Virus record (IMG/VR): IMGVR_UViG_3300031920_000245
Coordinates: 1 to 58,100 of that record
Origin: a virus
Taxonomy: Duplodnaviria > Caudoviricetes
Direction: 5' to 3' (one strand)
Length of the DNA: 58,100 nucleotides
Of the stretch, positions 5,881-57,031 are shown piece by piece (the stretch's first letter is position 1; every line of letters begins with the position of its first letter). The position numbers and the translations under genes were made by a program. The notes beneath the pieces are model-generated. The model saw only the letters and a program-made list of their open reading frames with translations. It did not search any database and had not been told where the DNA came from.

Positions 5881-5906
5881 TACGATAAAAATCAATATAG
5901 GTTACA
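5881..5906 (-). promoter_or_regulatory. TGTAAC-N16-CGTA promoter
   Basis: Reverse complement reads TGTAAC, 16 nt, CGTA upstream of the lipoprotein gene; motif recurs six times in the window. Confidence 0.65.
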
Positions 5907-35228: not shown

Positions 35229-35254
35229 TACGATAAAAAACGATAAATGTTACA
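35229..35254 (-). promoter_or_regulatory. TGTAAC-N16-CGTA promoter
   Basis: Reverse-strand copy just upstream of 35219. Confidence 0.65.
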
Positions 35255-42815: not shown

Positions 42816-42835
42816 ATGAAATAATTTGTTTTTAA

Positions 42836-42862
42836 TGTAACCTTTTATATCTTTGCAACGTA
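42836..42862 (+). promoter_or_regulatory. TGTAAC-N17-CGTA promoter of tRNA operon 1
   Basis: TGTAAC 42836-42841, CGTA 42859-42862. Confidence 0.65.
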
Positions 42863-42912
42863 TTTAGTAATAAAGAAACAATTTATGTTTAAAGATATTA
42901 GAATTTAGAACA

Positions 42913-42969
42913 ATGAAAAGAATAATTAACATACAACCGCAACCGCAACATCAACCAATATTTGGTTAG
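42913..42969 (+). CDS. Attenuator leader peptide 1, MKRIINIQPQPQHQPIFG
   Basis: Codon run CAA CCG CAA CCG CAA CAT CAA CCA; followed by antiterminator, terminator and tRNA-Pro, Pro, His, Gln. Confidence 0.85.
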   Translation: MKRIINIQPQPQHQPIFG

Positions 42970-43057
42970 TTGAACGGGAATGTTATGTGTTAAATATATA
43001 TTAACTTAAAATAAAACAGGACCTCCGTTCAATAAAATGAACGGGGGTTTTTTATTT
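42970..43057 (+). terminator. Attenuator 1: antiterminator plus intrinsic terminator
   Basis: Terminator ACCTCCGTTCA-ataaaa-TGAACGGGGGT-TTTTT at 43021-43057; TTGAACGG at 42970 is complementary to its 5' arm CCGTTCAA. Confidence 0.85.
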
Positions 43058-43083
43058 AATAACAATTAAACAATTTAGAAAAA

Positions 43084-43218
43084 ATGGGAATTCCGAGAAA
43101 CAAAGAACAAAATTTAAAAAGACTAAAAAACCGATTGAAAAAATTTGATGGCAATAACCAAAAAATGGCTGACAAAATAAAAGTTAAAATCAAAATGGTT
43201 GAAAGTCAAAAAGGTTAA
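43084..43218 (+). CDS. 44-aa basic protein
   Basis: MGIPRNKEQNLKRLKNRLKKFDGNNQKMADKIKVKIKMVESQKG, not in the ORF track. Confidence 0.55.
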   Translation: MGIPRNKEQNLKRLKNRLKKFDGNNQKMADKIKVKIKMVESQKG

Positions 43219-43226
43219 GTAAAGAT

Positions 43227-43303
43227 CGAGTAGTTGGGGAGTCAGGTCACCCCGCCACATTTGGGATGTGGAGAACTCGCAGGTTCGAATCCTGCCTACT
43301 CGA
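43227..43303 (+). tRNA. tRNA-Pro(UGG)
   Basis: Acceptor CGAGTAG/CTACTCG; anticodon arm CCACA-TTTGGGA-TGTGG. Confidence 0.92.
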
Positions 43304-43311
43304 CTAAATAT

Positions 43312-43386
43312 ATGGGTGTTCCGCAGATGGATATACGGACATGTTTTGGGGACATGTGTTCGTGGGTTCGAATCCCACTACCCATA
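43312..43386 (+). tRNA. tRNA-Pro(UGG), second copy
   Basis: ATGGGTG/TACCCAT; CATGT-TTTGGGG-ACATG; GTGGG-TTCGAAT-CCCAC. Confidence 0.85.
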
Positions 43387-43512
43387 CAATAATTAGTTAC
43401 CCTGCTTGTTCCGTGTGGGGTTATAAAAATACATTAATTAACGGAACTCATGATGGAGTCCTTGCCAAGAAAGTAGGATAAAGATGTTATAATGTTGACT
43501 AATTATATATAT

Positions 43513-43584
43513 GGTGTTTGAAGCATTAATGTGATGTGCATGACTGTGGATCATGAGAAGACGGTTCAATACCGTCCTTACACC
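43513..43584 (+). tRNA. tRNA-His(GUG)
   Basis: CATGA-CTGTGGA-TCATG; G-1:C73; two U-U mismatches in the acceptor stem. Confidence 0.78.
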
Positions 43585-43600
43585 CAAAATTTTTAAAGTT

Positions 43601-43747
43601 ATGGGAAAAATTAGAGTTGGAAATAAAGAAAATGCTATTCTAAACCGTGAATGGGGTGGACATGTGAAAAGTTGGTGTAAAAAATACACAGCTAAAACAC
43701 GTAGAAATCTTAATCAACGAATTATAAGAGAAGCAATGTTTGATTAA
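43601..43747 (+). CDS. 48-aa basic protein
   Basis: MGKIRVGNKENAILNREWGGHVKSWCKKYTAKTRRNLNQRIIREAMFD. Confidence 0.55.
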   Translation: MGKIRVGNKENAILNREWGGHVKSWCKKYTAKTRRNLNQRIIREAMFD

Positions 43748-43754
43748 ATTATAT

Positions 43755-43825
43755 TGACCTATGGTGTAATGGTAGCACAGGTGATTTTGGTTCACCCGGT
43801 CAAGGTTCGAATCCTTGTAGGTCAG
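43755..43825 (+). tRNA. tRNA-Gln(UUG)
   Basis: TGACCTA/TAGGTCA; GGTGA-TTTTGGT-TCACC. Confidence 0.92.
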
Positions 43826-43865
43826 CAATTTTTTTATTTCATATGTTTTTATTACCTTTACCCCT

Positions 43866-44249
43866 ATGAGAAAATACAATTTATTCCTCGATGATTTTAG
43901 ATCATTAGCTGATGCACATTCATATACATTTGAAATGCTTTATGCTACAAAAAAATGGGAAATAGTTCGTTCCTATGATGAATTCGTTAAATATATTGAA
44001 GAGAATGGTCTACCTGAAATGATTTCCTTCGACCACGATCTCGCTGACGAACATTATGATTACCAAAAAGAGATTAATTACGATCAAGTAGAAAAAACAG
44101 GATACCATTGTGCTAAATGGTTAATTAATTATTGTCTTGATAATAAATTAGATGTTCCGGATAAAATATTAATTCATTCAGCAAATACTGTTGGTTCTCT
44201 AAATATAAAATCATTATTTGACACTTATTGGAAAGTTTACGGTAAATAA
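43866..44249 (+). CDS. Cyclic-phosphate-processing receiver-domain protein
   Basis: LFLDDFR, ISFDHDL, TGYHCAKWL, IHSANTVG motifs. Confidence 0.8.
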   Translation: MRKYNLFLDDFRSLADAHSYTFEMLYATKKWEIVRSYDEFVKYIEENGLPEMISFDHDLADEHYDYQKEINYDQVEKTGYHCAKWLINYCLDNKLDVPDKILIHSANTVGSLNIKSLFDTYWKVYGK

Positions 44250-44260
44250 AACATAAAATT

Positions 44261-44512
44261 ATGATACCAGATTACGAAGAAGAACATAGAATAGATCAAG
44301 CTAATAAAGCATATGAATTGTTTGAAAGATTTTTAGAATCACATGACGGTAAAAGAATATTCCCTGAACATAAGGAATTACTTGATTATTTTTTATTGAA
44401 AGAATTACATATTGACGAATTAAAAGAAAAAATTCACCAATATGAAAGTTTCTTTAATACCTTAAAAGGTTTTTTACCTCGTGATTTTTCGATTCATGAT
44501 AAATTAAGTTAA
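44261..44512 (+). CDS. Hypothetical protein
   Basis: 83-aa ORF. Confidence 0.5.
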   Translation: MIPDYEEEHRIDQANKAYELFERFLESHDGKRIFPEHKELLDYFLLKELHIDELKEKIHQYESFFNTLKGFLPRDFSIHDKLS

Positions 44513-45265
44513 TTACCTCCTACCCCCTGAATAAGTTCTACTTCCGGTACTTCTTGTTGTTGTCGAACTTCTACCACTACCATTGTTGGACCTACTTGAG
44601 ATCGATGGTCTACTTGTTGTATTTCTATATATATTTGTCGGTCTTGTTGTACTTGTTGAAGTACGTGAATAAGTACTTGGGCGTGTACTACTATTTGTGG
44701 TAGTTCTATTATAATTAGAAGGTCTTGTTGACGTTCTTGTATTGTTATATACTGGTTTCATTGATGTTGTTCTTGAATATGTTGGTCCTGAAGTTCGTGA
44801 ATAAGTACTTGGACGTGTAGTTGATCTTGATGTATACGTATTATCATGGTTAGAAGTATACGTATTGTGATGAGAATAACGATTTCCTTGATTATATTTA
44901 TAATATGGTCCGTAATGATACGATATGGAACGATAATGATACGGATTATAATGACAATAGTAATTTCTTGGATAATGATAGCTATAATGATATGGTCTAT
45001 AACGATAATATGAATAATAATTTGATGGATATACGTAGCCAAAACTTACAATATAACGAACTTTTGGCTGACTATAGGATTCGTTATTATAATAATTATT
45101 AGTCACATAAGTATTATTTACAGCATCATTTACTGTATCATTTACAACCTCACTTACAGCATCATTTTCTTTATGTAATCTATATTTTTCGTAATTAGAT
45201 AATTCTTGTGCAAACATTTGTGTCACGAATATAATCCCGGTTAATATTAAATATAATTTTTTCAT
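44513..45265 (-). CDS. Secreted low-complexity protein (Tyr/His-rich, then RPSTYSRT repeats)
   Basis: Signal peptide ending MFA-Q; tail ending SGGRR, Bacteroidetes-like. Confidence 0.65.
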   Translation of the reverse strand: MKKLYLILTGIIFVTQMFAQELSNYEKYRLHKENDAVSEVVNDTVNDAVNNTYVTNNYYNNESYSQPKVRYIVSFGYVYPSNYYSYYRYRPYHYSYHYPRNYYCHYNPYHYRSISYHYGPYYKYNQGNRYSHHNTYTSNHDNTYTSRSTTRPSTYSRTSGPTYSRTTSMKPVYNNTRTSTRPSNYNRTTTNSSTRPSTYSRTSTSTTRPTNIYRNTTSRPSISSRSNNGSGRSSTTTRSTGSRTYSGGRR

Positions 45266-45349
45266 AGTAGTTTTGTTTTTAATATAAATACAATTATCAT
45301 ACCAAGTCTTTAATTAAAAATTATGTATTTATATAAAATATTGGTTATT

Positions 45350-46009
45350 ATGAAAAAACAAACAGATAAGGAATTATTATTCGAAAGAATGCATAAAGTT
45401 AGTGGTATGCCACTAAATGAAAATTTTAAACAAGCTGAAGAATTCACACCACATGGTACATACACTGTTTCAAATAGTGGTGGATATGAAATAATGTTAA
45501 ACGATTCTGGTGATGGTGCAAAGGTTCGTGATGCATATGATTCAGATAATCCAAAAACCTCAGATTGGTTAGAAATAGAACATGTTACTGGTGAAGATGG
45601 TGAATTAGAACCTGTTATCGACCCTAATGGATATAATATTCCATTGAATCAGGTGATGAGAGTTAATGAAGATGATGATAAAGTTACTGCTGCTGATGAT
45701 AGTGAACCTGAAGAAACCGAAGCATGGCAAGGTGGAATCTCAGTGGATGAAGATGATATAAATGAAGATAGTTCTAGTGAAACACCAATTCATAAATGGG
45801 TAATGTTTGCATTTAATTATCCTCATGGTTTTATTGAAGAAGTTTGGGCAGATGCTGGTGAATCAACAATAAATCATTTATCATCTAAATTTTCATCTTT
45901 ATACAATAGGGTTGGTTCAAGTTCAGTTATAAATAAATTTTATACTGAATTAGATGCTGGTAATCAAGCAAAATTAGAGAATTGGGTTATGGAAAACTAT
46001 CAAGGATAA
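45350..46009 (+). CDS. Acidic protein with KxTDKELLFERM N-terminus
   Basis: Start ATG 45350 after GTATTTATA at 45325. Confidence 0.65.
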   Translation: MKKQTDKELLFERMHKVSGMPLNENFKQAEEFTPHGTYTVSNSGGYEIMLNDSGDGAKVRDAYDSDNPKTSDWLEIEHVTGEDGELEPVIDPNGYNIPLNQVMRVNEDDDKVTAADDSEPEETEAWQGGISVDEDDINEDSSSETPIHKWVMFAFNYPHGFIEEVWADAGESTINHLSSKFSSLYNRVGSSSVINKFYTELDAGNQAKLENWVMENYQG

Positions 46010-46049
46010 AAAATAATTCACTTTTTTTGTAACATTTAAAATAAAAAAT

Positions 46050-46535
46050 ATGAAAAAGAAAACAGATAAAGAACTTCTTTTTGAAAGAATGGAAATAGTT
46101 AATCCTGACTTTAATAAACCCGAATTAGCTGAAGTATCTGATAAAAACATTCCAATTAATATGTATAGAAAATTATATTTATTGGCGAAAGATACTACTG
46201 GTGAATTATTAAAAGAATTTGAGACATTATTAAATTTTCTATTTAATGGACAAACACCACCACATATTATAACATCACTTTCAATATCTAATTCTCCAGA
46301 TGAATTCATGCGTAATGTGGCTAGTTTTGAGGGATTAAACGAGAATGATATATTAGAAGAATTGGAAGAAGATATTGGTGGTACAAAAGATGCTGAATAT
46401 AGAAGAACCATTCAATTATTTGAAGAAATATATAAAAATAAAGGTCTTTATTATGCTTTAGCTTTACTCTATGATAGTCAATATGATAGAGAAGATATTA
46501 AGAATATGATGGAACTTATTTATCCAAAAAAATAA
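46050..46535 (+). CDS. Protein with KxTDKELLFERM N-terminus
   Basis: First 14 aa nearly identical to the previous gene. Confidence 0.65.
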   Translation: MKKKTDKELLFERMEIVNPDFNKPELAEVSDKNIPINMYRKLYLLAKDTTGELLKEFETLLNFLFNGQTPPHIITSLSISNSPDEFMRNVASFEGLNENDILEELEEDIGGTKDAEYRRTIQLFEEIYKNKGLYYALALLYDSQYDREDIKNMMELIYPKK

Positions 46536-46552
46536 AAATAATTCACTTTTTT

Positions 46553-46578
46553 TGTAACATTTAATATTTATATACGTA
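46553..46578 (+). promoter_or_regulatory. TGTAAC-N16-CGTA promoter of tRNA operon 2
   Basis: TGTAAC 46553-46558, CGTA 46575-46578; GTATTTATA also at 46596. Confidence 0.65.
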
Positions 46579-46623
46579 TATTTGCATAGAAGATTGTATT
46601 TATAAAAAATAAAACACGATAAA

Positions 46624-46734
46624 ATGAAAAATTTAATGGACATAATGTTAATTTCTGCACTCGTTGCCTTATTATGGGCAGATAACGATGTGGATGAACT
46701 ATGTTCAGTCGGGTTTAATAAATTAAGATGTTAA
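46624..46734 (+). CDS. Attenuator leader peptide 2, MKNLMDIMLISALVALLWADNDVDELCSVGFNKLRC
   Basis: Core ALVALLWADNDVDEL matches downstream tRNA identities; contains antiterminator AGTCGGGTTT at 46707-46716. Confidence 0.8.
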   Translation: MKNLMDIMLISALVALLWADNDVDELCSVGFNKLRC

Positions 46735-46755
46735 CTAAGCTAACTTTTTAAATAG

Positions 46756-46795
46756 AAAAACCCGACTTGAGTAATTAAGTCGGGTTTTTTGTTTT
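46756..46795 (+). terminator. Attenuator 2 terminator
   Basis: AAAAACCCGACTTGA-gtaa-TTAAGTCGGGTTTTTT-GTTTT. Confidence 0.88.
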
Positions 46796-46933
46796 ATATA
46801 AGTAATTGTTCTTTGACGTATTGGGAAATTAAAATGGTGTTCAAGTTATCTGGATAATCCAGATGGGTTGAATATTAAACATAATTAAGGGTTATTATAT
46901 CGAATAATTTTCGTAAATTCGAACCCTTAATAT

Positions 46934-47010
46934 GGTCTACGGGGCTGCTAGGTGTGGCTGCCGGACTGTCACTCCGGAGATTCAGATGGGTTCGAACCCC
47001 ATGTAGACCG
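46934..47010 (+). tRNA. tRNA-Asp(GUC)
   Basis: GGTCTAC/GTAGACC; CCGGA-CTGTCAC-TCCGG; G73. Confidence 0.88.
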
Positions 47011-47052
47011 CTTTTTTACATATTGACAGTATTTATATTAAATATAAATTTT

Positions 47053-47754
47053 ATGAAAAGTAAAAGATATGAAAAAGAATTTTTTAGTCAAATAGTTAAA
47101 CATTCACATAATCTAACAGACATTGCTGAAAAATTAAATTTAAAACCACATTGTGGTAATAGAGATACAATAAAAAAATATATTAACATATATAGATTAG
47201 ATACATCACATTTTAGAGTAAGATATGAATTAAGAATAAAAAGGAAAATCCCATTATCTGAAATAATGATAAGTGGATCAACATATTCAACAACTAATTT
47301 AAAAGAAAGATTATATGATGAGGGTTTAAAAGAAAGAGAATGTGAGAAATGTGGACAAGGGGAAATATGGTATGGTGATAATATGTCTTTAATTCTTGAC
47401 CATATTAATGGGGATAGTAGTGATCATAGGTTTGAAAATCTTCGTATATTATGTCCAAATTGTAATGCAACATTACCAACACATGGTGGTAAAAATAAAA
47501 GAAATAAAAAATATTATTATTATAATGATTCTAATCAATATTGCAATTGTGGTAATAAAAAAAATAATAAAGCAGAATTGTGTAAAAAATGTAATGATAT
47601 TAATATTAGAAAAGTAAAGAGACCTACATATAATCAATTAATTAAAGAAATTAAAGAAACATCGTATTGTGCTGTAGGTAGAAAATATAATGTTAGTGAT
47701 AATACAATAAGAAAATGGATAAAGTTTTATGAAAATAATAATACACCCTCGTAG
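47053..47754 (+). CDS. HNH homing endonuclease
   Basis: CEKC...LDHINGDSSDHRFENLRILCPNCNA; C-terminal HTH; likely start ATG 47053. Confidence 0.9.
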   Translation: MKSKRYEKEFFSQIVKHSHNLTDIAEKLNLKPHCGNRDTIKKYINIYRLDTSHFRVRYELRIKRKIPLSEIMISGSTYSTTNLKERLYDEGLKERECEKCGQGEIWYGDNMSLILDHINGDSSDHRFENLRILCPNCNATLPTHGGKNKRNKKYYYYNDSNQYCNCGNKKNNKAELCKKCNDINIRKVKRPTYNQLIKEIKETSYCAVGRKYNVSDNTIRKWIKFYENNNTPS

Positions 47755-47818
47755 TTCAGTCGGTTAGAATATAAGCCTGTCACGCTTAAGGTCGCCCGTT
47801 CGAGTCGGGTCGGGGGTG
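47745..47818 (+). tRNA. tRNA-Asp(GUC), second copy
   Basis: ACCCTCG/CGGGGGT; TAAGC-CTGTCAC-GCTTA. Confidence 0.9.
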
Positions 47819-47827
47819 CAGACAAAT

Positions 47828-47900
47828 ACTCCTATAACTCAGTTGGTAGAGTGCTTGTGTTACATACAAGATGTCATCGGTTCAAGTCCGGTTGGGAGTA
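47828..47900 (+). tRNA. tRNA-Val(UAC)
   Basis: ACTCCTA/TGGGAGT; CTTGT-GTTACAT-ACAAG. Confidence 0.88.
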
Positions 47901-47940
47901 CAATTCGATTTTTCCAGACACGTCTGGAATATTCAAAAAT

Positions 47941-48012
47941 GCTGCGTTAGTGAAGTGGTTATCACGTCAGACTTTCAATCTGGAGTCGGGAGTTCAATTC
48001 TCCTACGCAGTA
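47941..48012 (+). tRNA. tRNA-Glu(UUC)
   Basis: GCTGCGT/ACGCAGT; TCAGA-CTTTCAA-TCTGG. Confidence 0.88.
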
Positions 48013-48109
48013 CAAATTTTTTATTGGTACAAAATTAACAAAAGAGTTAGTATTTAATATAAATGATAAAAAAAGATGTTTTTATTGGTATAAAACTAAC
48101 AAATTATAT

Positions 48110-48181
48110 GGCGCATTCTTCTAACGGCTAGGAAATCGGGTTTTCATCCCGGCAATGGGGGTTCGATTCCCCCATGCGTTA
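48110..48181 (+). tRNA. tRNA-Glu(UUC), second copy
   Basis: GGCGCAT/ATGCGTT; TCGGG-TTTTCAT-CCCGG. Confidence 0.88.
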
Positions 48182-48631
48182 CAATGTTTCTTCTTCTTTC
48201 TTACCATGATCACCCATATAAGAAAGATGGAAGAAACAACTATAAAGTGTCCACATAAACAATAAATTAAGTATCATTTCCATAGGATTTGCGATTATTA
48301 ATCTCCAAGATACTTCAAGTGAGAACATTGGTAAGCTAAGAAAACATAATATCCAAATTGTTTTAAATGTGTGCCATAAATCTGTCGTAAAGACCAAAAC
48401 TGATTTAAATATTGGGGTTAATATTTTTTTAAATATTTCAGGTATGTTTTTATCATCTAAAAAATATTTATTTTTATGACTTACTGCGGGATTTGCCCAT
48501 TGTTGGAATTTTTCGTTTTTAATTCTAGACCAGTATGTTTTTTTATATTTATGTCTAATTTTATCAGACATTCCATTAAAAAAACCACCGATAGCAATTA
48601 AAATATATGGTGTTAAAATATAAAGTATCAT
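48179..48631 (-). CDS. Membrane protein antisense to the tRNA array
   Basis: Hydrophobic segments, TDLWH motif; late motif at 48637. Confidence 0.6.
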   Translation of the reverse strand: MILYILTPYILIAIGGFFNGMSDKIRHKYKKTYWSRIKNEKFQQWANPAVSHKNKYFLDDKNIPEIFKKILTPIFKSVLVFTTDLWHTFKTIWILCFLSLPMFSLEVSWRLIIANPMEMILNLLFMWTLYSCFFHLSYMGDHGKKEEETL

Positions 48632-48677
48632 TTAAACATAAATACTATTTATTTAATACAAATAAAATATATTTGAT

Positions 48678-48926
48678 ATGGATTTAGAAAATAAAATTGA
48701 AAAATTAGAACAGGAAAATGATGATCTTAAAGATCAATTATTTGAATTACAAACAAATTTAAAATATTCTCGTGAAAATGATTTACGTGATTTTCTTAGA
48801 ACATTATACAGGGAAATTAATGAAGAAATTGAAGATGATGAAAGTAAATTATCAAAAGAAGATATATTAAAGAATATGAAAAAATATATTTCTGTTTTTT
48901 CTGAAAAATATAATCTACCACTATAA
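48678..48926 (+). CDS. Hypothetical coiled-coil protein
   Basis: 82-aa ORF. Confidence 0.55.
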   Translation: MDLENKIEKLEQENDDLKDQLFELQTNLKYSRENDLRDFLRTLYREINEEIEDDESKLSKEDILKNMKKYISVFSEKYNLPL

Positions 48927-48934
48927 TTTAATAT

Positions 48935-49012
48935 TGTCGCATAGCTCAGTAGGTTCAGAGCACTTGGTTTACACCCAAGGGGTCGTGGGTTCGAATCCCT
49001 CTGCGATAACCA
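48935..49012 (+). tRNA. tRNA-Val(UAC), second copy, CCA encoded
   Basis: TGTCGCA/TGCGATA-ACCA; CTTGG-TTTACAC-CCAAG. Confidence 0.9.
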
Positions 49013-49103
49013 CATTTATCGGTAAATATATCGATAAACTACATTTATCGGGTTTAGAGTCGATAAATTATTTAAAGTGGTCAAATATAACCACTTTAAA
49101 CAC

Positions 49104-49185
49104 CCCCTTGTGGTGGAATTGGTAGACACGCATGATTTAGGATCATGTGCCGTAAGGCATGAGAGTTCGAGTCTCTCCAAGGGGA
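49104..49185 (+). tRNA. tRNA-Leu(UAG)
   Basis: CCCCTTG/CAAGGGG; CATGA-TTTAGGA-TCATG; long variable arm. Confidence 0.92.
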
Positions 49186-49259
49186 CAAGCTTAATCGGGG
49201 TAACGATAGTAAGTTCCCGACACTTAGAGGTGAAATTATAGTTTACCATAAGCACGTAT

Positions 49260-49334
49260 GGGGCAGTAGCATAGTCTGGCTAATGCGTTTGTTTTGCAAG
49301 CAAAAGATCGCTGGTTCAAATCCAGTCTGTTCCA
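49260..49334 (+). tRNA. tRNA-Ala(UGC)
   Basis: GGGGCAG/CTGTTCC with G3:U70; TTTGT-TTTGCAA-GCAAA. Confidence 0.88.
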
Positions 49335-49383
49335 CAAGTAGAAATAGGTTTTCGTGCGGTTTTCCTCAAATAAACCAAACTAT

Positions 49384-49465
49384 GGGAACGTGGTGGAATT
49401 GGTATACACGATAGTTTAAGGAGCTATTACTTTACAGTGTGAGGGTTCGAGTCCCTCCGTTCTCA
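49384..49465 (+). tRNA. tRNA-Leu(AAG)
   Basis: GGGAACG/CGTTCTC; Leu-type D arm; ATAGT-TTAAGGA-GCTAT. Confidence 0.82.
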
Positions 49466-49541
49466 CAAATTTACATCAGTTAGGTCTAATCTTTCTATTA
49501 TTAATGGTAAATTAGACTAAACTGATGTAATTAGATTAAAT

Positions 49542-49626
49542 GGCGATGTGGTGGAATTGGTAGACACGCTGGACTTAAAATCCAGTGAGCATTACGCTCG
49601 TGGGGGTTCAAATCCCCCCATCGCTA
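49542..49626 (+). tRNA. tRNA-Leu(UAA)
   Basis: GGCGATG/CATCGCT; CTGGA-CTTAAAA-TCCAG. Confidence 0.93.
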
Positions 49627-49631
49627 CAAAT

Positions 49632-49705
49632 GGGGCATTAGCTCAGATGGCTAGAGCACCTCCCTTGCACGGAGGGGGTCGTGGGTTCGAGTCCCACATG
49701 TTCCA
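49632..49705 (+). tRNA. tRNA-Ala(UGC), second copy
   Basis: GGGGCAT/ATGTTCC; CCTCC-CTTGCAC-GGAGG. Confidence 0.93.
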
Positions 49706-49798
49706 CAAAATGAGTTGCACCTTGAATATTCATTAATTATTAGAGGACGATTAGGTTTGATATCAACTGAAAGATCGTTAATAATATTCTATTAAGGT

Positions 49799-49890
49799 TT
49801 GATCACTTTAATGGGTATGAATGTGATAATAGGATGGCGACCCTGTTTGAAAAGAACAGGATGTATAGGGTTCGATACCCTTGTGATTCA
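49799..49890 (+). pseudogene. Aberrant tRNA-like gene (possibly Phe-derived)
   Basis: T arm AGGG-TTCGATA-CCCT, GATCAC/GTGATT acceptor, hairpin CCTGTT-TGAAAAG-AACAGG; expanded non-canonical D region. Confidence 0.5.
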
Positions 49891-49939
49891 CAAAATTGTT
49901 TTTGGTAATATTCATCTATTTATAATAAAATACAATATT

Positions 49940-50419
49940 ATGATAGATCAAATAGACCAATATGTTTTCTTTTTTATAATGCAAGCAGTTTTCATATCAT
50001 ACGTGTTTTTCATTATGATTAAGTATGGAGTACAAAAATCAATTTCAGAAAGTTATTACGCATTACCACCTAAATTAAGACCATTATTTACTTTTTTCTG
50101 TTGGGGTTTTGCTTTCCCTGCAATTATTGTCGGAGATTCAGTATTAATGTTTTTTGCTGGTTCTGGTATTGCTTTTGTTGGTGCTGCATGTAATATGCAT
50201 GAAGAATTTGTGAGGAAAGTACATGTAACTGCAGCAATAATAGGAATAACATGTGCTCATTTGGCAATTATATTTAATTACGATATGTGGTGGCTTACTG
50301 CAGGATTTGTAATTATATCAATTCCAATAATAATATTTAATAAAAAAACATATATTTGGTGGATTGAATTATTATCTTTCATTTCAATAAGCGTTGCGTT
50401 AGGTACATCAATTTTCTAA
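49940..50419 (+). CDS. Multi-pass membrane protein
   Basis: Likely start 49940; SISESYY motif then about five hydrophobic helices. Confidence 0.7.
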   Translation: MIDQIDQYVFFFIMQAVFISYVFFIMIKYGVQKSISESYYALPPKLRPLFTFFCWGFAFPAIIVGDSVLMFFAGSGIAFVGAACNMHEEFVRKVHVTAAIIGITCAHLAIIFNYDMWWLTAGFVIISIPIIIFNKKTYIWWIELLSFISISVALGTSIF

Positions 50420-50424
50420 TACTT

Positions 50425-50498
50425 ACGTCCGTAGTTCAATTAGGTAGAATGCTGGTCTCCAAAACCAGAGGTTGGGGGTTCGATTCCCTCCGGGCGTG
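50425..50498 (+). tRNA. tRNA-Trp(CCA)
   Basis: ACGTCCG/CGGGCGT; CTGGT-CTCCAAA-ACCAG; G73. Confidence 0.92.
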
Positions 50499-50520
50499 CT
50501 AATATTTATTCAATAATTTA

Positions 50521-50760
50521 ATGGTAATGAAACACGAATTAAAAGAAATTGTGAAAGGAACTGTGGCAAAATTAGAGCATGTTTGTAATGGTAAAGCTGA
50601 TTATAGAATCAATGTTAATGATACTATTTATCAACTTGAAATTAACATTATGGAAAAGGAATGGGAAAATATATACATACTTCCGGAATATAAATCGATA
50701 ACATTAATGCGTTGGATCAGAAAAGGGATTGAGAATGGTAATCTTATTCAATTAAATTAA
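50521..50760 (+). CDS. Hypothetical protein
   Basis: 79 aa with KSITLMRWIRK. Confidence 0.55.
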   Translation: MVMKHELKEIVKGTVAKLEHVCNGKADYRINVNDTIYQLEINIMEKEWENIYILPEYKSITLMRWIRKGIENGNLIQLN

Positions 50761-50766
50761 TTTTTT

Positions 50767-50792
50767 TGTAACATTTCTTGATATTCTCCGTA
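50767..50792 (+). promoter_or_regulatory. TGTAAC-N16-CGTA promoter
   Basis: TGTAAC 50767-50772, CGTA 50789-50792. Confidence 0.65.
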
Positions 50793-50815
50793 TATATAAT
50801 TAAATTTGACAACTT

Positions 50816-51544
50816 ATGTTGATACTTGGAAAAAATAGAGATTATTATGATGGTGTTGTCGGTACAATGGGTATTGATAAAACTATTGTTTATAATCGTC
50901 ATACTGTTGAAAATGATGACTGTAAAAAATTTCCAAAAGAATTTAAATGTAAATTACATTATAGTGATGATGAATCAAAATTTATTGATCTTTGTTCTTA
51001 TGGTATTGACAGTGATAAAACTAAAAAATATAAAGAAGTTGATGTTTTTTTTATTGGTTTTTGTGGTAAAATATATATCGGTTGGAAATTTTATTATTTA
51101 ATTGGTAATGGTATTCACGAAAAAATGAAATATGATATTGTTTATGATATTGATGTAGCAAAGAAATACATTAAAGATAATAGATGGGGTAGTGGTAATC
51201 TTAATGATATTCTGAATCATATTAAAAATTATAATCCTATTGAATTATTTAGAGAAAATAATACACCTATTTTTATTTATGATAGTCATATAGATAGAAT
51301 AGATTTAGATAAATATTATGGTAGTAACAATCAAAGATTTATTATTAATCCGGTGTTAAAAGAATATAAATTTTATAAGGTTTTTGATACATTTAGTGCC
51401 TTTCAAGAAATTCAAATGTTTATCTCCGGTGTGTTGGGATCTAATGAAAAAGATATTATTGAAGTGGAAGATAAATATAAAATTGCACAACATGGTTTTA
51501 ATAAATGGTCCTTTAGAAGAGAACCATCAAAGAAAAAGAAATAA
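50816..51544 (+). CDS. Hypothetical phage protein
   Basis: 242 aa; DYYDG, FIGFCGKIY, AFQEIQMFISG, HGFNKWSFR. Confidence 0.7.
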   Translation: MLILGKNRDYYDGVVGTMGIDKTIVYNRHTVENDDCKKFPKEFKCKLHYSDDESKFIDLCSYGIDSDKTKKYKEVDVFFIGFCGKIYIGWKFYYLIGNGIHEKMKYDIVYDIDVAKKYIKDNRWGSGNLNDILNHIKNYNPIELFRENNTPIFIYDSHIDRIDLDKYYGSNNQRFIINPVLKEYKFYKVFDTFSAFQEIQMFISGVLGSNEKDIIEVEDKYKIAQHGFNKWSFRREPSKKKK

Positions 51545-51587
51545 ATGCTGCGAATAATGAGGTTAATCGTTGCACATTTTACGGCAA

Positions 51588-51875
51588 ATGAGAAATTATA
51601 CTAATTTATTAATAATTCCCGCAAAATTTGCGAAGAATAGTGATGATAATCAACGCATAATTAATTGTGTGATCGGTAAAACCCCTGATGGTGTGCCAAT
51701 TACACAATTAAGAAAATTTGAGAAATATTGTACAGAAGGTATTGAAAATCCGACCTATTTATTAATAGGCATCATAAGTGGTCAGGGTTTTACACGAGTA
51801 ACATTTACCGATGCCAAAGAGTTTGAAAAATTGTTCATTGAAAAATGGGGTTGTCTGGATTTGACAGCAACGTAG
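51588..51875 (+). CDS. Hypothetical protein overlapping the tmRNA 5' end
   Basis: ATG 51588; stop lies inside ssrA. Confidence 0.45.
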   Translation: MRNYTNLLIIPAKFAKNSDDNQRIINCVIGKTPDGVPITQLRKFEKYCTEGIENPTYLLIGIISGQGFTRVTFTDAKEFEKLFIEKWGCLDLTAT

Positions 51876-52215
51876 AATGGTAAGTAAGCAAGTGGTAGTT
51901 GTAGAATCTACTTTAAAAAAGTTACAAAACTATAAATGCAGAAGACTTAATGTCTATTCCAACATTTCTTAACAGAAGTGTACCAGCAGTTGCAAGTGAA
52001 GCTGAACTAGCAATGGCTGCGTAAGGAAACAGCAAAAAAACAGCGAAAAACTTGTAATCAAGTAAGGTTTGAGATACCTTTAAATAATCACTCTGGTTAA
52101 TTATTCGACTATAACGAATAGATATTTTGGATGATTAGAAAATCATATCCTAAACTTGTAGAAAACTTATTAGTCACTTGTTTGGACGTGGGTTCGACTC
52201 CCACCAACTCCACCA
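51847..52215 (+). ncRNA. ssrA: tmRNA
   Basis: 5' GGGGTTG...GGATTTGAC; 3' GACGTGGGTTCGACTCCCACCAACTCCACCA with G3:U; tag ORF 51938-52024 after ATAAAT ending LAMAA-stop. Confidence 0.93.
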
Positions 52216-52216
52216 A

Positions 52217-52362
52217 GGTAATTGTGGGGTCTTAATAAGACTTAAAGATAGTTTGCAAACGTAGGTAGTTAGAGTTCATGATGATAGCTATCAAATGATG
52301 TGTTGGCATGGGAGTTCGACTCTTCCACACGTTGCTTTAAGTTAAAGACCCTACACATTACT
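52217..52362 (+). ncRNA. Unidentified structured RNA
   Basis: TGTGGGGTCTT/AAGACCCTACA and ACTTAAAG/CTTTAAGT closing stems; internal GGAG-TTCGA-CTCT T-loop-like hairpin. Confidence 0.55.
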
Positions 52363-52399
52363 GATAAAAAATAAGAAAGATTGAAAGACATTTGGAGAT

Positions 52400-52705
52400 A
52401 TGAAAAAATTAGTTAGAGATAGAATTCCAGAAATTATCGAAAAAAAAGAAGGTAAATCACCAGATTATTATATTGCTAAATCTGAAGAGTATGAAGGAAG
52501 ATTATATGATAAATTAGGTGAAGAAACTATTGAATTTATCAATGAACCTTGTGCTGAAGAACTTGCTGATATTTTAGAAGTGGTTGGTGCACTTGCTAAA
52601 TTTCATGGTATTGGTCTTGAGGATATTAAAATAGCTAAGAACAAAAAATTCAGAGAAAGAGGTGGTTTTAATGAACGTTTAGTATTAAATATGCCTGAAA
52701 AATAA
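52400..52705 (+). CDS. MazG/HisE-like nucleoside triphosphate pyrophosphohydrolase
   Basis: KLVRDRIPEII, KL.EE..EF, EELADILEV, K..ERGGF. Confidence 0.85.
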   Translation: MKKLVRDRIPEIIEKKEGKSPDYYIAKSEEYEGRLYDKLGEETIEFINEPCAEELADILEVVGALAKFHGIGLEDIKIAKNKKFRERGGFNERLVLNMPEK

Positions 52706-52747
52706 CATAATTTAAATTATGCCCCCATGAAAGCATATTTATATTAA

Positions 52748-52879
52748 ATGAATAGAAAACCATTACATATTAAACCTTCCCGGAAAAAACCAACTGAATA
52801 TTGTTGTGGTAAGAGAGTTAAAGTTGGTGATCGTGGTAGAAAAAAACCAAACATAACAAGAAGAATAAAAAAAAGATAA
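52748..52879 (+). CDS. 43-aa very basic peptide
   Basis: MNRKPLHIKPSRKKPTEYCCGKRVKVGDRGRKKPNITRRIKKR. Confidence 0.45.
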   Translation: MNRKPLHIKPSRKKPTEYCCGKRVKVGDRGRKKPNITRRIKKR

Positions 52880-52911
52880 CTCCCATGAATGTTTTTCTTG
52901 GAATTTAATTT

Positions 52912-52993
52912 GCCTCAATGATGGAACTGGTAGACATGCAGGTTTCAAAAACCTGTGCTTCCGAGCTTGTGGGTTCAAATCCCACTTGAGGTA
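52912..52993 (+). tRNA. tRNA-Leu(CAA)
   Basis: GCCTCAA/TTGAGGT; CAGGT-TTCAAAA-ACCTG. Confidence 0.9.
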
Positions 52994-53012
52994 CTATTTA
53001 TAAATAAATAAC

Positions 53013-53192
53013 ATGAATATTTTAGAATTAACATTAATCACTATTTTTATTATGGTAGTTGGATTATATCTAATTATTGAATTAATTGATTCTTTTTTCC
53101 GAATCAGATCATATTTTAAAAGGTCACCTTTTTCAGAATATGATCAGAAAATTGGATTAAGTTATAATCCTAAAACTAAAAAATTAACATAA
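53013..53192 (+). CDS. 59-aa membrane protein
   Basis: MNILELTLITIFIMVVGLYLIIELID...; CTATTTATA upstream. Confidence 0.5.
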   Translation: MNILELTLITIFIMVVGLYLIIELIDSFFRIRSYFKRSPFSEYDQKIGLSYNPKTKKLT

Positions 53193-53250
53193 TTATGAAA
53201 AACTCAAAAGAAAGGTCATCAGTCTTCTAATACTAAAATGTTAGAAGATT

Positions 53251-53541
53251 ATGAGAAGAATTAAAGAAACTGTAGACAATACCTCAAATAGGGGTGAGTT
53301 TAATCGAGCATACAAACGGTATCTCGAAAGTAAAGGAAAAATTCGTTGTTCGTACTGTGGTTATAATCGTGGTGAAAACGATAATAGAAAATGGTATGGT
53401 AGTAACATGAGGGATGGTATTAGTTATCCTAATTGGAAATTAGCCACTAAAAACAGTAAACAATGGATGGATAAAAACCTCGAAATAACAAATAAAATTA
53501 TTCGAGGTGTAGAACATACCACTATCAAATTTAAACGATAG
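53251..53541 (+). CDS. Basic protein with CxxC
   Basis: 96 aa; IRCSYCG. Confidence 0.6.
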   Translation: MRRIKETVDNTSNRGEFNRAYKRYLESKGKIRCSYCGYNRGENDNRKWYGSNMRDGISYPNWKLATKNSKQWMDKNLEITNKIIRGVEHTTIKFKR

Positions 53542-53552
53542 TGGTTTTATCT

Positions 53553-53626
53553 TGCGGGGTAGCTTAGTCGGTTAAAGCGTTGGAGTCATATCCCAAAGAC
53601 CGAGGGTTCGAATCCCTCTCCCGCAA
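53553..53626 (+). tRNA. tRNA-Met(CAU), initiator-like acceptor
   Basis: TGCGGGG/TCCCGCA; TTGGA-GTCATAT-CCCAA with one mismatch. Confidence 0.8.
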
Positions 53627-53694
53627 CAAATTTCCCAATACGTTTTTTATATATAAATTTATTCATATATTTGTCTAATAAAAACACAAATAAT

Positions 53695-54240
53695 ATGGAA
53701 GAATTAAAAACACCACTTGTAATTAATTTATTTGCTGGTCCGAGCACTGGTAAAAGTACATCTGCAGCACAAATTTTCTCTGAATTAAAATGGATGGGAA
53801 TTAATTGTGAGATGGTTACAGAATTTGCAAAAGATAAAGTATGGGAAGAATCATTTAAGGTCTTAGATGATCAGGTTTACATTTTCGGTAAACAAGTACA
53901 TAGAATGCGTAGACTTGTTGGTAAGGTTGATATAATTATTACTGATTCACCGATCTTAAATTCATTGGTTTATGATGAATCTGGAAATGATAATTTTCAT
54001 AATTTAATTTTGGATGTTTTTAATGAATTTAATAACTTAAACTTCTTTCTTAGAAGAACAAAAAAATTCCAACAAGCTGGAAGAGTCCAAAATGAAGAGA
54101 AATCAAAGTTGTTAGATAATAAAGTTTGGAATATGTTATGTGATAATAAAATACCTTGTGATCCGGTTGATGCAAGTAAAGAGAATATAATAAAAGAGGT
54201 TTTACCTATAATTAATAGAGTATATTCAGCAAATAAATAA
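53695..54240 (+). CDS. NadR/AAA_28-like P-loop ATPase or kinase
   Basis: INLFAGPSTGKST, EFAKD, ITDSP, GRVQ. Confidence 0.8.
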   Translation: MEELKTPLVINLFAGPSTGKSTSAAQIFSELKWMGINCEMVTEFAKDKVWEESFKVLDDQVYIFGKQVHRMRRLVGKVDIIITDSPILNSLVYDESGNDNFHNLILDVFNEFNNLNFFLRRTKKFQQAGRVQNEEKSKLLDNKVWNMLCDNKIPCDPVDASKENIIKEVLPIINRVYSANK

Positions 54241-54256
54241 AATAATTCGGAAATAA

Positions 54257-54282
54257 TGTAACCTTTGTTTGGTTTATTCGTA
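54257..54282 (+). promoter_or_regulatory. TGTAAC-N16-CGTA promoter of tRNA operon 3
   Basis: TGTAAC 54257-54262, CGTA 54279-54282 overlapping GTATTTATA. Confidence 0.65.
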
Positions 54283-54322
54283 TTTATAGTATAGATTTGT
54301 AAAGTTAAATTTAAAAAAGAAA

Positions 54323-54409
54323 ATGATGTCAAGAATTAACACATATTATTTCAAGAAATCTTATAAGAAGTATCTTATAGGAATCGGGAATCGTATGATT
54401 AGTTCATAA
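54323..54409 (+). CDS. Attenuator leader peptide 3, MMSRINTYYFKKSYKKYLIGIGNRMISS
   Basis: TAT TAT TTC AAG AAA TCT TAT AAG AAG TAT; antiterminator GAATCGGG at 54381-54388. Confidence 0.85.
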   Translation: MMSRINTYYFKKSYKKYLIGIGNRMISS

Positions 54410-54440
54410 AAAATAAATTAACTAAAACTAATATATGTTT

Positions 54441-54476
54441 AAAAACCCGATTCTTAATAGAGTCGGGTTTTTTGTT
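54441..54476 (+). terminator. Attenuator 3 terminator
   Basis: AAAAACCCGATTCT-taat-AGAGTCGGGTTTTTT-GTT. Confidence 0.88.
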
Positions 54477-54502
54477 GTATAAAAGTTCTTTGAATATATA
54501 AT

Positions 54503-54575
54503 GATCTCGTAGCTCAGTTGGTAGAGCACCTGCCTTTTAAGCAGGGAGTCGTGGGTTCGATCCCCACTGGGGTCA
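54503..54575 (+). tRNA. tRNA-Lys(UUU)
   Basis: GATCTCG/TGGGGTC; CCTGC-CTTTTAA-GCAGG. Confidence 0.92.
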
Positions 54576-54638
54576 CAGAAAAGAGGAATGATAGAGTCCA
54601 CACTACCTCTTCCTATATATGGGGATGTGGACACCAAT

Positions 54639-54710
54639 GGTTTCGTAGCTGAGTTGGTTTAGCACCGCCCTTTTAAGGCGGGGACGTGGGTTCGACCCCC
54701 ACCGGGATCA
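54639..54710 (+). tRNA. tRNA-Lys(UUU), second copy
   Basis: GGTTTCG/CGGGATC; CCGCC-CTTTTAA-GGCGG. Confidence 0.9.
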
Positions 54711-54723
54711 CTATTAAATATAT

Positions 54724-54816
54724 CACATAATGGTGAAAAGGAATACACTATCCAAGACATGGGGAGAGGGATGCTGGCAACACCATTCCATACGGGTTCG
54801 AGTCCCGTTTATGTGA
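54724..54816 (+). pseudogene. tRNA-like gene with Leu-type body and broken anticodon arm
   Basis: CACATAA/TTATGTG acceptor, TGGTGAAAAGGAATACAC D arm, ACGGG-TTCGAGT-CCCGT T arm, long variable arm; no canonical anticodon loop. Confidence 0.6.
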
Positions 54817-54830
54817 CAAAAATTAATATT

Positions 54831-54995
54831 ATGAGTAGAGAAGAATTATTAGCATTTTTACGTGAAAATCTAACCATTGAAGTATCATTAGATGATGAAT
54901 ATGAAGGTGATGGTAGATATGCAACAAGTAATGTGACATTAAGATTATGTGATGAAGAAATTTCATCATCATATGATTCAGTAAAGATAGATTAA
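54831..54995 (+). CDS. Small acidic protein
   Basis: Likely start ATG 54831 (MSREELLAFLRENL...). Confidence 0.55.
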   Translation: MSREELLAFLRENLTIEVSLDDEYEGDGRYATSNVTLRLCDEEISSSYDSVKID

Positions 54996-54998
54996 ATT

Positions 54999-55081
54999 GG
55001 ATAGGTGGTCGAGTGGTTAATGGCAGCAGACTGTAACTCTGCCCTCTTAGGAGTTCGGGGGTTCGAATCCCTCCCTGTCCA
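54999..55081 (+). tRNA. tRNA-Tyr(GUA)
   Basis: GGATAGG/CCTGTCC; GCAGA-CTGTAAC-TCTGC; long variable arm. Confidence 0.92.
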
Positions 55082-55154
55082 CAATATTGTCAGTTGGGGA
55101 GTCTTAGTGACTTTATGCCACCTCCTATCGGGGTGGACTCTGGCAATATTAATT

Positions 55155-55234
55155 GGGTACGTTGAGCAATTGGTGGCTCGCCTGACTGTAGATCAGGTCT
55201 TAACAGCTTGGGGGTTCGAATCCCTCCGTGCCCA
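55155..55234 (+). tRNA. tRNA-Tyr(GUA), second copy
   Basis: GGGTACG/CGTGCCC; CCTGA-CTGTAGA-TCAGG. Confidence 0.9.
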
Positions 55235-55306
55235 CTTTTTATTTTTCTAATTAATTTAGATATTATATATTATTTTTTATATATTTGTATGAATTAATTA
55301 TTCCAC

Positions 55307-56176
55307 ATGAAAAAATATTCGTTTAGTGAGGTTGATTGTTTAACAACAACACAATATATAATGGCATCTTGGAAATATTCAGGTGCTAATTTTTGTAGGG
55401 ATTTAATTAAAGAAAATTTTCCGGAGTGTTTTAATTGGGGACTGTGGGGTAAAACACATTCAATATTATCAATAGAAGCGTATAAAACAGTAAGTAATAA
55501 AAATATTAAAATTTTTCTTATTCTTGCTGACCCAAGAGATGTGTCTGCACATATAGGATATCACGAAAATGGCTGGAATTGCGATAAAAAAGATTATTCT
55601 GATTATGCATATAATCATCGGGATAGTTTAGTTTTTTTAAATGAAAACATGTATAAAATTAATGAATTATTATCATATTACATATCCAAATTTAAAGATA
55701 GTTGTTTAGTTTTAAGGTATGAAGATGCATATTATAATCCTGATATTTTTTTAAATAAGGTGGGTAAGTTTTTAAATTTAAAACCACTTAATATCAATGA
55801 CATTAATAAATATCGTCAAGATATTAACAGAAATATTGGTGTTTTTCCATATTATTATAGTTCAGAAACAAATGAACAACATTATAAACAATATCAGAAT
55901 TTTTATGTTAAATGGGGATACGGTAAACAGGGTTTTTTTTACAGTGATTTCGATAATGAAACAAAACACAATAAATTTCTAAAAGATAAAGGTTGGGAAT
56001 ATTTAAATTATGAACCATATATAGATAATGGTTTAAAATACAGTATTAAAGATTCTAAATATATTGAATTTTTAAATAGAAATAAAGTGTATTCAATGGT
56101 AATCCCAATTAATTATAGGAATGGTGCACTTAATAATCATATTGAAGATCGAATAAAAAAATTAAGAAATGAATAA
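55307..56176 (+). CDS. Sulfotransferase-fold protein
   Basis: SWKYSGAN, KTH, LADPRDV, LRYED pattern of sulfotransferase-like proteins. Confidence 0.6.
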   Translation: MKKYSFSEVDCLTTTQYIMASWKYSGANFCRDLIKENFPECFNWGLWGKTHSILSIEAYKTVSNKNIKIFLILADPRDVSAHIGYHENGWNCDKKDYSDYAYNHRDSLVFLNENMYKINELLSYYISKFKDSCLVLRYEDAYYNPDIFLNKVGKFLNLKPLNINDINKYRQDINRNIGVFPYYYSSETNEQHYKQYQNFYVKWGYGKQGFFYSDFDNETKHNKFLKDKGWEYLNYEPYIDNGLKYSIKDSKYIEFLNRNKVYSMVIPINYRNGALNNHIEDRIKKLRNE

Positions 56177-57029: not shown

Positions 57030-57031
57030 TT

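Follow-up and report, generated by a model that had tools for sequence, protein, structure and literature searches.

Candidate leader-peptide attenuators stand before the tRNA operons of an uncultured T4-like jumbo phage

Transcription attenuation by translation of a leader peptide is known from the trp, his, leu, thr, ilvGMEDA and pheA operons of enterobacteria. In these systems a promoter-proximal short open reading frame (ORF) is rich in codons for the cognate amino acids, an intrinsic terminator stands before the structural genes, and a segment upstream of the terminator can pair with its 5′ arm. Leader-peptide attenuation also controls synthetase genes, as in pheST with its leader pheM. 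T-box riboswitches likewise act by transcription antitermination in response to the charging status of tRNA; they bind uncharged tRNA and use neither a ribosome nor an ORF. Large lytic phages such as T4, T5, vibriophage KVP40 and the mycobacteriophages carry big clustered sets of tRNA genes with homing endonuclease genes interspersed. Such arrays are usually viewed as constitutive compensation of codon usage or as replacement of degraded or cleaved host tRNAs. Here we analyze a phage sequence of 58,100 nucleotides (nt), IMG/VR record IMGVR_UViG_3300031920_000245, referred to below as the window. Its tRNA genes stand in groups, each behind a short leader ORF and a terminator. We consider it likely that these units are ribosome-mediated (leader-peptide) transcription attenuators which control the phage’s own tRNA operons.

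ARAGORN predicted 22 tRNAs and one tmRNA between positions 43227 and 55235 of the window, all on the + strand. Rfam added a tRNA that ARAGORN had missed, at 43514-43584 (39.6 bits, gathering score 29), whose anticodon loop carries GTG and makes it a tRNA-His. Three times the same order of elements was observed: promoter, short ORF, a segment complementary to the 5′ arm of a terminator (region 2), the intrinsic terminator itself, and tRNA genes. A preliminary description of this DNA, made by a model from the letters, had proposed three such units, and all of their elements were found on the + strand. In the following lines “motif” stands for TGTAAC-N16/17-CGTA.

42825-42862, + strand: promoter A, with a -33 element at 42825-42828, a 19-nt spacer and a -7 element at 42848-42855; motif at 42836-42862
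42913-42969, + strand: leader ORF A, 18 codons with a TAG stop; eight consecutive Gln, Pro or His codons at 42934-42957
42970-42985, + strand: region 2 of A, directly after the leader stop codon, complementary to the 5′ arm of terminator A
43018-43057, + strand: terminator A, 14-bp stem, -19.2 kcal/mol, T-run; hairpin at 43018-43051
43227-43826, + strand: tRNA group A, with Pro(tgg) at 43227-43304, Pro(tgg) at 43312-43387, His(gtg) at 43514-43584 and Gln(ttg) at 43755-43826
46553-46584, + strand: promoter B, with the motif at 46553-46578 and a -7 element at 46577-46584
46624-46734, + strand: leader ORF B, 36 codons; 21 of the 35 residues after Met1 are Asp, Glu, Val, Leu, Ala, Trp or Met
46704-46717, + strand: region 2 of B, within leader ORF B; can pair with the 5′ arm of terminator B
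46755-46796, + strand: terminator B, 16-bp stem, -23.9 kcal/mol with flanks, T-run; hairpin at 46755-46790
46934-50499, + strand: tRNA group B, with Asp, Asp, Val, Glu, Glu, Val, Leu, Ala, Leu, Leu, Ala and Trp
54257-54299, + strand: promoter C, with the motif at 54257-54282 and a -7 element at 54292-54299
54323-54409, + strand: leader ORF C, 28 codons; 8 of 10 residues are Lys or Tyr in its best stretch
54379-54389, + strand: region 2 of C, within leader ORF C; can pair with the 5′ arm of terminator C
54441-54478, + strand: terminator C, 14-bp stem, -18.5 kcal/mol, T-run; hairpin at 54441-54472
54503-55235, + strand: tRNA group C, with two Lys(ttt), a tRNA-like gene and two Tyr(gta)

The window is the entire IMG/VR record, with an estimated completeness of 17%, and codes for a Gp23-type capsid protein, a T4-type portal, a terminase and a sheath protein. 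Relatives of its major capsid protein (MCP) were encoded by 135 of the 137 pattern matches in the viral-contig collection. The best 80 of these 135 are 73-85% identical to it, and many of them lie on contigs of 320-365 kb. A close cultured relative was not found in the phage collection, where the best MCP identities were 34-42%. By its sequence, the window phage is a member of an uncultured clade of T4-like jumbo phages. We located the tRNAs in 15 large relatives, took the tRNA regions of 11 of them and added three loci found through a neighbouring gene. The set curated by coordinates comprises 44 units from 13 records (10 of class A, 13 of class B, 11 of class C and 10 of class D); four units in the record G002, one more in G013 and two in two further records stand outside it. 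Attenuator-like units were present in all 16 examined clade records with tRNA arrays, and in every record with an array the terminator-preceded groups follow in the same order, A, B, C and D. In the relatives, group B goes on with a tmRNA, Leu(caa) and Met (the window counterpart lies at 51847-53627). The fourth group, D, carries Thr, Cys, Asn, Ile, Ser, Phe, Gly and Arg tRNAs 7-12 kb past group C, hence beyond the end of the window. Together, group A (Pro, His and Gln), group B (Asp, Glu, Val, Leu, Ala, Trp, tmRNA, Leu(caa) and Met), group C (Lys and Tyr) and group D cover all 20 amino acids.

The codons of the leaders match the tRNAs that follow. Among the 411 ATG ORFs of 15-50 amino acids in the window, leader A ranks first for Pro, His and Gln, and leader C first for Lys and Tyr, while leader B shares the top rank with five others for Asp, Glu, Val, Leu, Ala, Trp and Met; the amino-acid sets for this ranking were taken from the tRNAs, not from the leaders. 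The His codon in leader A is explained by the tRNA-His at 43514-43584. The match claimed in the preliminary description is therefore borne out, with the correction that leader B matches the whole array from Asp to Trp and not just a run of Asp, Val and Glu. Over the curated units, the mean fraction of residues from the own set is 0.39 in class A, 0.70 in B, 0.32 in C and 0.81 in D, against a background of 0.084, 0.349, 0.135 and 0.431, respectively, in 37 long ORFs of the window. Class D leaders thus consist to 81% of Thr, Cys, Asn, Ile, Ser, Phe, Gly and Arg, and the tRNAs that follow them are those of just these amino acids.

The match extends to isoacceptors. A cognate codon is present in the leader for 327 of the 354 distinct downstream anticodons, where 181.6 are expected from random coding windows of equal length (37 of 39 in class A, 126 of 132 in B, 28 of 30 in C and 136 of 153 in D). 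Both codon families of Ser and both of Arg occur in the D leaders, as do codons for two isoacceptors each of Gly and Ile. More than one synonymous codon was seen at 2 of 7 columns with a conserved residue in class A, 8 of 8 in B, 5 of 8 in C and 8 of 10 in D, which argues that selection acts on the meaning of the codons.

The preliminary description had also proposed that leader codons would co-vary with the downstream anticodons in related jumbo phages, and this comparison was positive. In G013 the tRNA-Trp heads group D and is not in B. Of the 13 B leaders only that of G013 lacks Trp, and of the 10 D leaders only that of G013 contains it. G010 and G013 carry Leu(taa/caa) tRNAs in group B, and their B leaders use TTA or TTG for four of five (G010) and four of four (G013) Leu codons; the single CTA of the G010 leader falls in region 2. 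The Leu(tag/aag/gag) tRNAs of these two records stand in group D, where the leader cores contain CTA or CTC; a CTN codon occurs in none of the eight other D leaders. On the capsid tree the two records form a sister pair (97/93), and we count the relocation of the Leu tRNAs as one event. Finally, the record L088 lacks tRNA-His, and the run of its A leader has Lys at the usual place of His, though a His codon occurs earlier in that leader.

The hairpins that follow the leaders are the three longest terminator-like hairpins of the region, in which terminator-like sites overall are not enriched (7 against 5.3 expected). Across the curated units the terminator energies range from -10.9 to -23.9 kcal/mol, and the terminator is part of the minimum free energy (MFE) structure of the full-length transcript in 42 of 44 cases. 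Changes on both sides of the stem were found at five pairs in class A and at eight pairs in class B; in each class, none of 500 shuffles reached the co-variation score.

A leader segment complementary to the 5′ arm of the terminator, as the preliminary description had it, was found in all three window units: exact copies of the 3′ arm of 7 nt (A), 10 nt (B) and 8 nt (C) lie upstream and are hence complementary to the 5′ arm. Both an arm-swap test and compensatory changes support the pairing. The duplex of leader and 5′ arm is better than in shuffles (z ≤ -2) in 41 of the 44 units. Pairing with the own arm averages -13.3 kcal/mol against -9.4 kcal/mol with swapped arms, and none of 10,000 permutations was as good, either across or within classes. 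In class B, three antiterminator pairs are changed on both sides, one of them with four standard pair types, and the co-variation score was reached in 0 of 500 shuffles. The class B antiterminator cells are paired to 73% in register against 21-41% in slid registers. This count is conservative, since two rows of the class B alignment A4, G010a and G013, have region 2 shifted out of register and were scored as unpaired. In class A, all 10 sequences can form the 7-bp core of the antiterminator, with one compensatory pair in two sequences; in the class A unit of G004, this compensatory change makes an Arg codon of a Trp codon and preserves the pair. The class D alignments A2 (full-length, with region 2 out of register for at least G001) and A5 (shorter) were excluded from the pair counts. 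In transcripts that end before the 3′ arm, the antiterminator (2:3) pairing appears in the MFE structure of window unit B, window unit C and unit D of G008; in that of window unit A, a hairpin of control codons and region 2 is seen instead. The comparison establishes the anatomy of the units, their conservation, the codon/anticodon match, and the co-variation of leaders with tRNAs and of region 2 with the terminator arm.

Next to the stop codon of leader A, at 42967-42969, we observed that reading through the TAG would take the frame across region 2 to a TAA at 42991-42993; leader A of the relatives in some cases runs through region 2.

We then consider the promoters. The TGTAAC-N16/17-CGTA motif occurs six times in the window, against 0.10 expected, and six sites were reached in 0 of 100 shuffles. 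Three of these sites stand before the leaders (42836, 46553 and 54257). The other three, at 5881-5906 (- strand), 35229-35254 (- strand) and 50767-50792 (+ strand), precede protein genes, and ORFs downstream of the extra copies lie at 5341-5841 (- strand) and 50816-51544 (+ strand). The motif is thus not restricted to tRNA leaders. Scoring with what we take to be the Bacteroidota -33/-7 promoter consensus, we found this architecture 5′ of the leader start codon in 33 of 44 units, where 0.1 are expected from shuffles. The -7 element alone was present in 43 of 44 units (4.9 expected) and the strict TGTAAC-N16/17-CGTA motif in 17. The motif overlaps the spacer and the start region of the -33/-7 promoter. 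Thus the motif named in the preliminary description is real, and its assignment as the promoter is only partly right: it sits in or next to a -33/-7 promoter. Reading it as a sigma-70-like or phage-specific promoter was dropped in favour of the -33/-7 architecture, beside which the motif has conserved bases of its own. Given this architecture, the host of the phage is probably a member of the Bacteroidota, and the tRNA operons are probably transcribed by the host polymerase.

If the units are attenuators, the transcript would start at a host-type (Bacteroidota -33/-7) promoter, and a ribosome would translate the short leader, whose codons sample nearly every downstream isoacceptor. When decoding is fast, the ribosome would run onto or past region 2, which at or just before the leader stop codon would be covered by it; the terminator hairpin would then form and transcription would stop before the tRNA genes. 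When an aminoacyl-tRNA is scarce, for which the preliminary description proposed starvation or host anticodon nucleases as triggers, the ribosome would stall upstream, region 2 would pair with the 5′ arm, and the polymerase would read into the tRNA block. The outcome would be a negative feedback in which the supply of tRNA tracks decoding demand, separately for four amino-acid groups. We infer the translation of the leader, the stalling, and the direction and size of the response. Region 2 is either contained in the leader ORF or adjoins its stop codon. In 27 of 44 units its 3′ end is at most about 17 nt from the stop, where the footprint of a terminating ribosome would cover it.

Several observations weigh against this interpretation. 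A trp-like protector (1:2) hairpin, in which region 2 pairs with the upstream ORF, is better than shuffles in only 8 of the 44 units and no better in 36. As a conserved protector pairing is not supported, the design is probably simpler than that of trp, with two structures, and it would fall to the translating ribosome itself to keep region 2 unpaired. Another 17 of the 44 units, mostly of classes C and D, have region 2 at 19-35 nt upstream of the stop codon. A kinetic argument is needed for these units, because region 2 is outside the footprint of the terminating ribosome. With a ribosome on the stop codon, the 5′ arm still has at least five upstream pairs in 35 of 44 truncated transcripts. 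Folding of the leaders with a ribosome footprint (a 30-nt constraint), suggested in the preliminary description, did not separate a stalled from a terminating ribosome. The decision between terminator and antiterminator would be kinetic and not settled by folding. Furthermore, the class A antiterminator is almost invariant, and its co-variation is not above shuffles (244 of 500). Leaders are homologous within a class, so that the evidence amounts to four designs and a few evolutionary events and not to 44 cases.

The leader/tRNA match also has exceptions that count on the same side. G002 lacks the tRNAs for Pro, Tyr, Thr, Phe, Gly, Ala, Trp and Val, and most of the corresponding leader codons are kept, namely those for Pro, Tyr, Thr, Phe, Gly, Ala and Trp; in L088, Tyr codons persist in the leader without a tRNA-Tyr. 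In G012, a tRNA-Phe ends group A and a tRNA-Pro stands in group D without matching leader codons. Unit C of G012 (13000-13440 of L110/L111, reverse strand) consists of a promoter and a terminator with no leader ORF. It is a decayed unit. A single tRNA-Tyr follows it, and tRNA-Lys is missing.

Codons retained for tRNAs that an operon has lost would be expected of a general sensor of translation status. In this alternative, the attenuators report any slowdown of ribosomes, such as host shut-off or global stress, and the codon bias is secondary. It also draws on leaders B and D, which carry codons for seven to eight amino acids, so that many limitations would act on them, and on the missing support for a protector hairpin, without which an untranslated leader would read through too. 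Nevertheless, the 20 amino acids are split cleanly over four leaders that match four tRNA groups, the isoacceptors are sampled far beyond expectation (327 of 354 against 182), and reciprocal changes of the leaders accompany the relocation of the Trp and Leu tRNAs. We therefore regard a general sensor as improbable, and favour attenuators that respond to the tRNAs of their own operon.

The spacing between terminator and tRNA genes bears on the two remaining alternatives. The gap from the terminator to the first tRNA is at most 30 nt in 21 of 44 units (6 of class A, 9 of C and 6 of D), several of them with 2-15 nt, and at most 61 nt in 35 of 44; in window unit C, the first tRNA begins 30 nt after the terminator. 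A gap of 30 nt or less leaves no room for a promoter, and these first tRNAs need read-through. Transcription of the tRNAs from promoters 3′ of the terminators, which would speak against attenuation, is thus argued against in classes A, C and D, but not in class B.

Strong terminators that abut tRNA genes need some control of read-through, and this could also be provided by factor-dependent or timed antitermination. A phage or host protein would then overcome the terminators, and the ORFs would be incidental or encode peptides with another role; programmed changes of transcription are indeed a feature of T4-like phages. Such a factor leaves unexplained the match of leader codons with downstream anticodons, the co-variation between region 2 and the 5′ arm of the terminator, and the synonymous variation at columns with a conserved residue. 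We rate it a little lower still than the general sensor.

Of the 13 class B units, 11 share a conserved element of about 23 nt just past the terminator and immediately 5′ of tRNA-Asp (window 46808-46830), which could be a processing signal or a weak internal promoter, and the gaps of 175 nt in window unit A and 137 nt in window unit B offer space for an internal promoter; both count against attenuation. The conserved element also occurs in window unit C, at 54485-54493. These features, together with a total of terminator-like sites in the region that is not above chance, would suit small genes with leaky terminators and no regulation, the tRNAs being made from internal promoters or by constitutive leak-through, an explanation we find just as improbable as timed antitermination, since 21 of the 44 units have gaps of 2-30 nt, too short for a promoter, and the composition, the codon match and the antiterminator co-variation stay unexplained. 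Ribosome-mediated attenuation remains the reading that we consider likely.

Other genes and sequence features of the region were recorded as well.

43084-43218, + strand: ORF of 44 codons between terminator A and the first tRNA
47053-47754, + strand: ORF for an HNH endonuclease (PF01844) that has a helix-turn-helix at its C terminus; it separates the two tRNA-Asp copies of operon B

The latter is probably a homing endonuclease gene. The tmRNA gene (51847-52215, + strand, Rfam 119 bits) lies between tRNA-Trp and tRNA-Leu(caa). This place is conserved, for example at 10129-10480 of L089, and in the relatives G001, G004, G007, G008 and G011. In the window, the tmRNA may have its own transcript, because a copy of the motif (50767) and two ORFs stand upstream of it. 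The tRNA-like gene of group C (54724-54817, + strand) is an odd one of 94 nt, called Val(gac) by ARAGORN and scored at 32 bits by Rfam; Val tRNAs are absent from group C of the relatives. A tRNA with a CTA anticodon (amber suppressor type, called “Pyl” by ARAGORN) ends group D in 8 of 10 relatives (G001, G004, G005, G007, G008, G009, G010 and G011). ARAGORN also called four-base or two-base anticodons in groups B and D (L089 4556-4638, and the arrays of G001, G004 and G007); these may be frameshift-type tRNAs, intron-bearing genes or miscalls. Directly 3′ of tRNA group A lies an ORF with a cREC_REC domain (PF20274, E 3e-22) at 43866-44249 (+ strand). We take this family to be associated with RNA repair systems, and its place beside group A is only a hint that tRNA damage is relevant to the phage. 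The region 3′ of group C (55307-58099, + strand) carries a weak sulfotransferase-like ORF, a family-2 glycosyltransferase and a B12-binding radical SAM protein.

The distribution of the arrays is uneven in the clade. G003, G006, G014 and G015 have few or no tRNAs. Two of these, G003 (capsid locus L033) and G006 (L014), are the nearest capsid relatives of the window and gave three and one tRNA matches, respectively, which indicates that tRNA arrays were gained or lost within the clade. A search of the viral contigs with the leader-peptide alignment A3 confirmed 3 of 189 pattern matches; the low number is attributed to the very short query. With blastn, the window segment 42800-47100 matched single tRNAs and nothing else in the phage records, and among the sequencing runs no RNA run was listed for this segment. 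Synteny via flanking proteins gave a homologue of 53671-54240 in L007 without nearby tRNAs, and no relative for 46050-46535. In the distant huge phage LR756508.1 (MCP 34% identical, 23 dispersed tRNAs), taken as a negative control, no unit was found by the same rule in the 55.5 kb scanned.

Rfam contains families for His, Trp, Thr, Leu and Phe leaders and for the T-box, and none of them matched the window segment 42700-55400 in a cmscan search at E ≤ 1, which returned tRNAs, the tmRNA and weak chance matches. The preliminary description knew of no report of leader-peptide attenuation of tRNA genes or phage tRNA arrays. In agreement with this, we found no description of attenuator control of tRNA genes, from phages or otherwise, in the full-text literature searched, with subscription journals and supplements outside its scope. 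The mechanism itself would be a known one; what appears to be new is the target (tRNA genes), the host context and leaders that sample many isoacceptors.

If attenuation holds, decoding speed would feed back directly on the supply of tRNA, and a textbook mechanism would gain a new class of targets, a virus and, probably, hosts among the Bacteroidota. Any one of the four units would then open only upon limitation of its own amino-acid or tRNA species, and the leaders could act as compact natural reporters of isoacceptor availability. A bolder idea, which we put forward tentatively and rather doubt, is that the four attenuators serve as an inducible counter-measure. They would then form an autonomous decoding homeostat for 20 amino acids, in which the loss of any host tRNA, depleted or cleaved through host shut-off or an anticodon nuclease defence, is sensed within seconds and answered by replacement tRNAs and the tmRNA of group B.

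How do the units compare with the systems described so far? They share the promoter-proximal ORF with cognate codons, the intrinsic terminator before the regulated genes and the segment pairing with its 5′ arm with the attenuators of biosynthetic operons, and leaders for several amino acids with those of thr and ilv. Unlike in those operons, the regulated genes are tRNAs and not enzymes, and the element resides in a phage. Where biosynthetic attenuators repeat single codons, the leaders here sample up to 18 of 19-20 distinct anticodons, and the protector (1:2) hairpin of trp is not supported. Like the T-box, the units would achieve transcription antitermination according to tRNA charging, with the difference that the sensor would be a translated ORF. 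They resemble the arrays of T4, T5, KVP40 and mycobacteriophages in their big clustered tRNA sets and the interspersed endonuclease gene. The probable Bacteroidota host also sets them apart: in the available text of an attenuator survey, leader-peptide systems are named only for Proteobacteria, Actinobacteria and one case in Firmicutes, and the terms “tRNA gene” and “tRNA operon” do not occur (Naville and Gautheret 2010, PMC2965389). The same text gives leader-peptide attenuation for a His leader before hisS paralogues in bacilli (PMC2965389). With hisS and pheST, the units would share the attenuation of a component of the translation apparatus, reporting the supply of charged tRNA. Those systems make synthetases for one amino acid each; here the product would be the tRNA itself, a direct feedback on decoding capacity.

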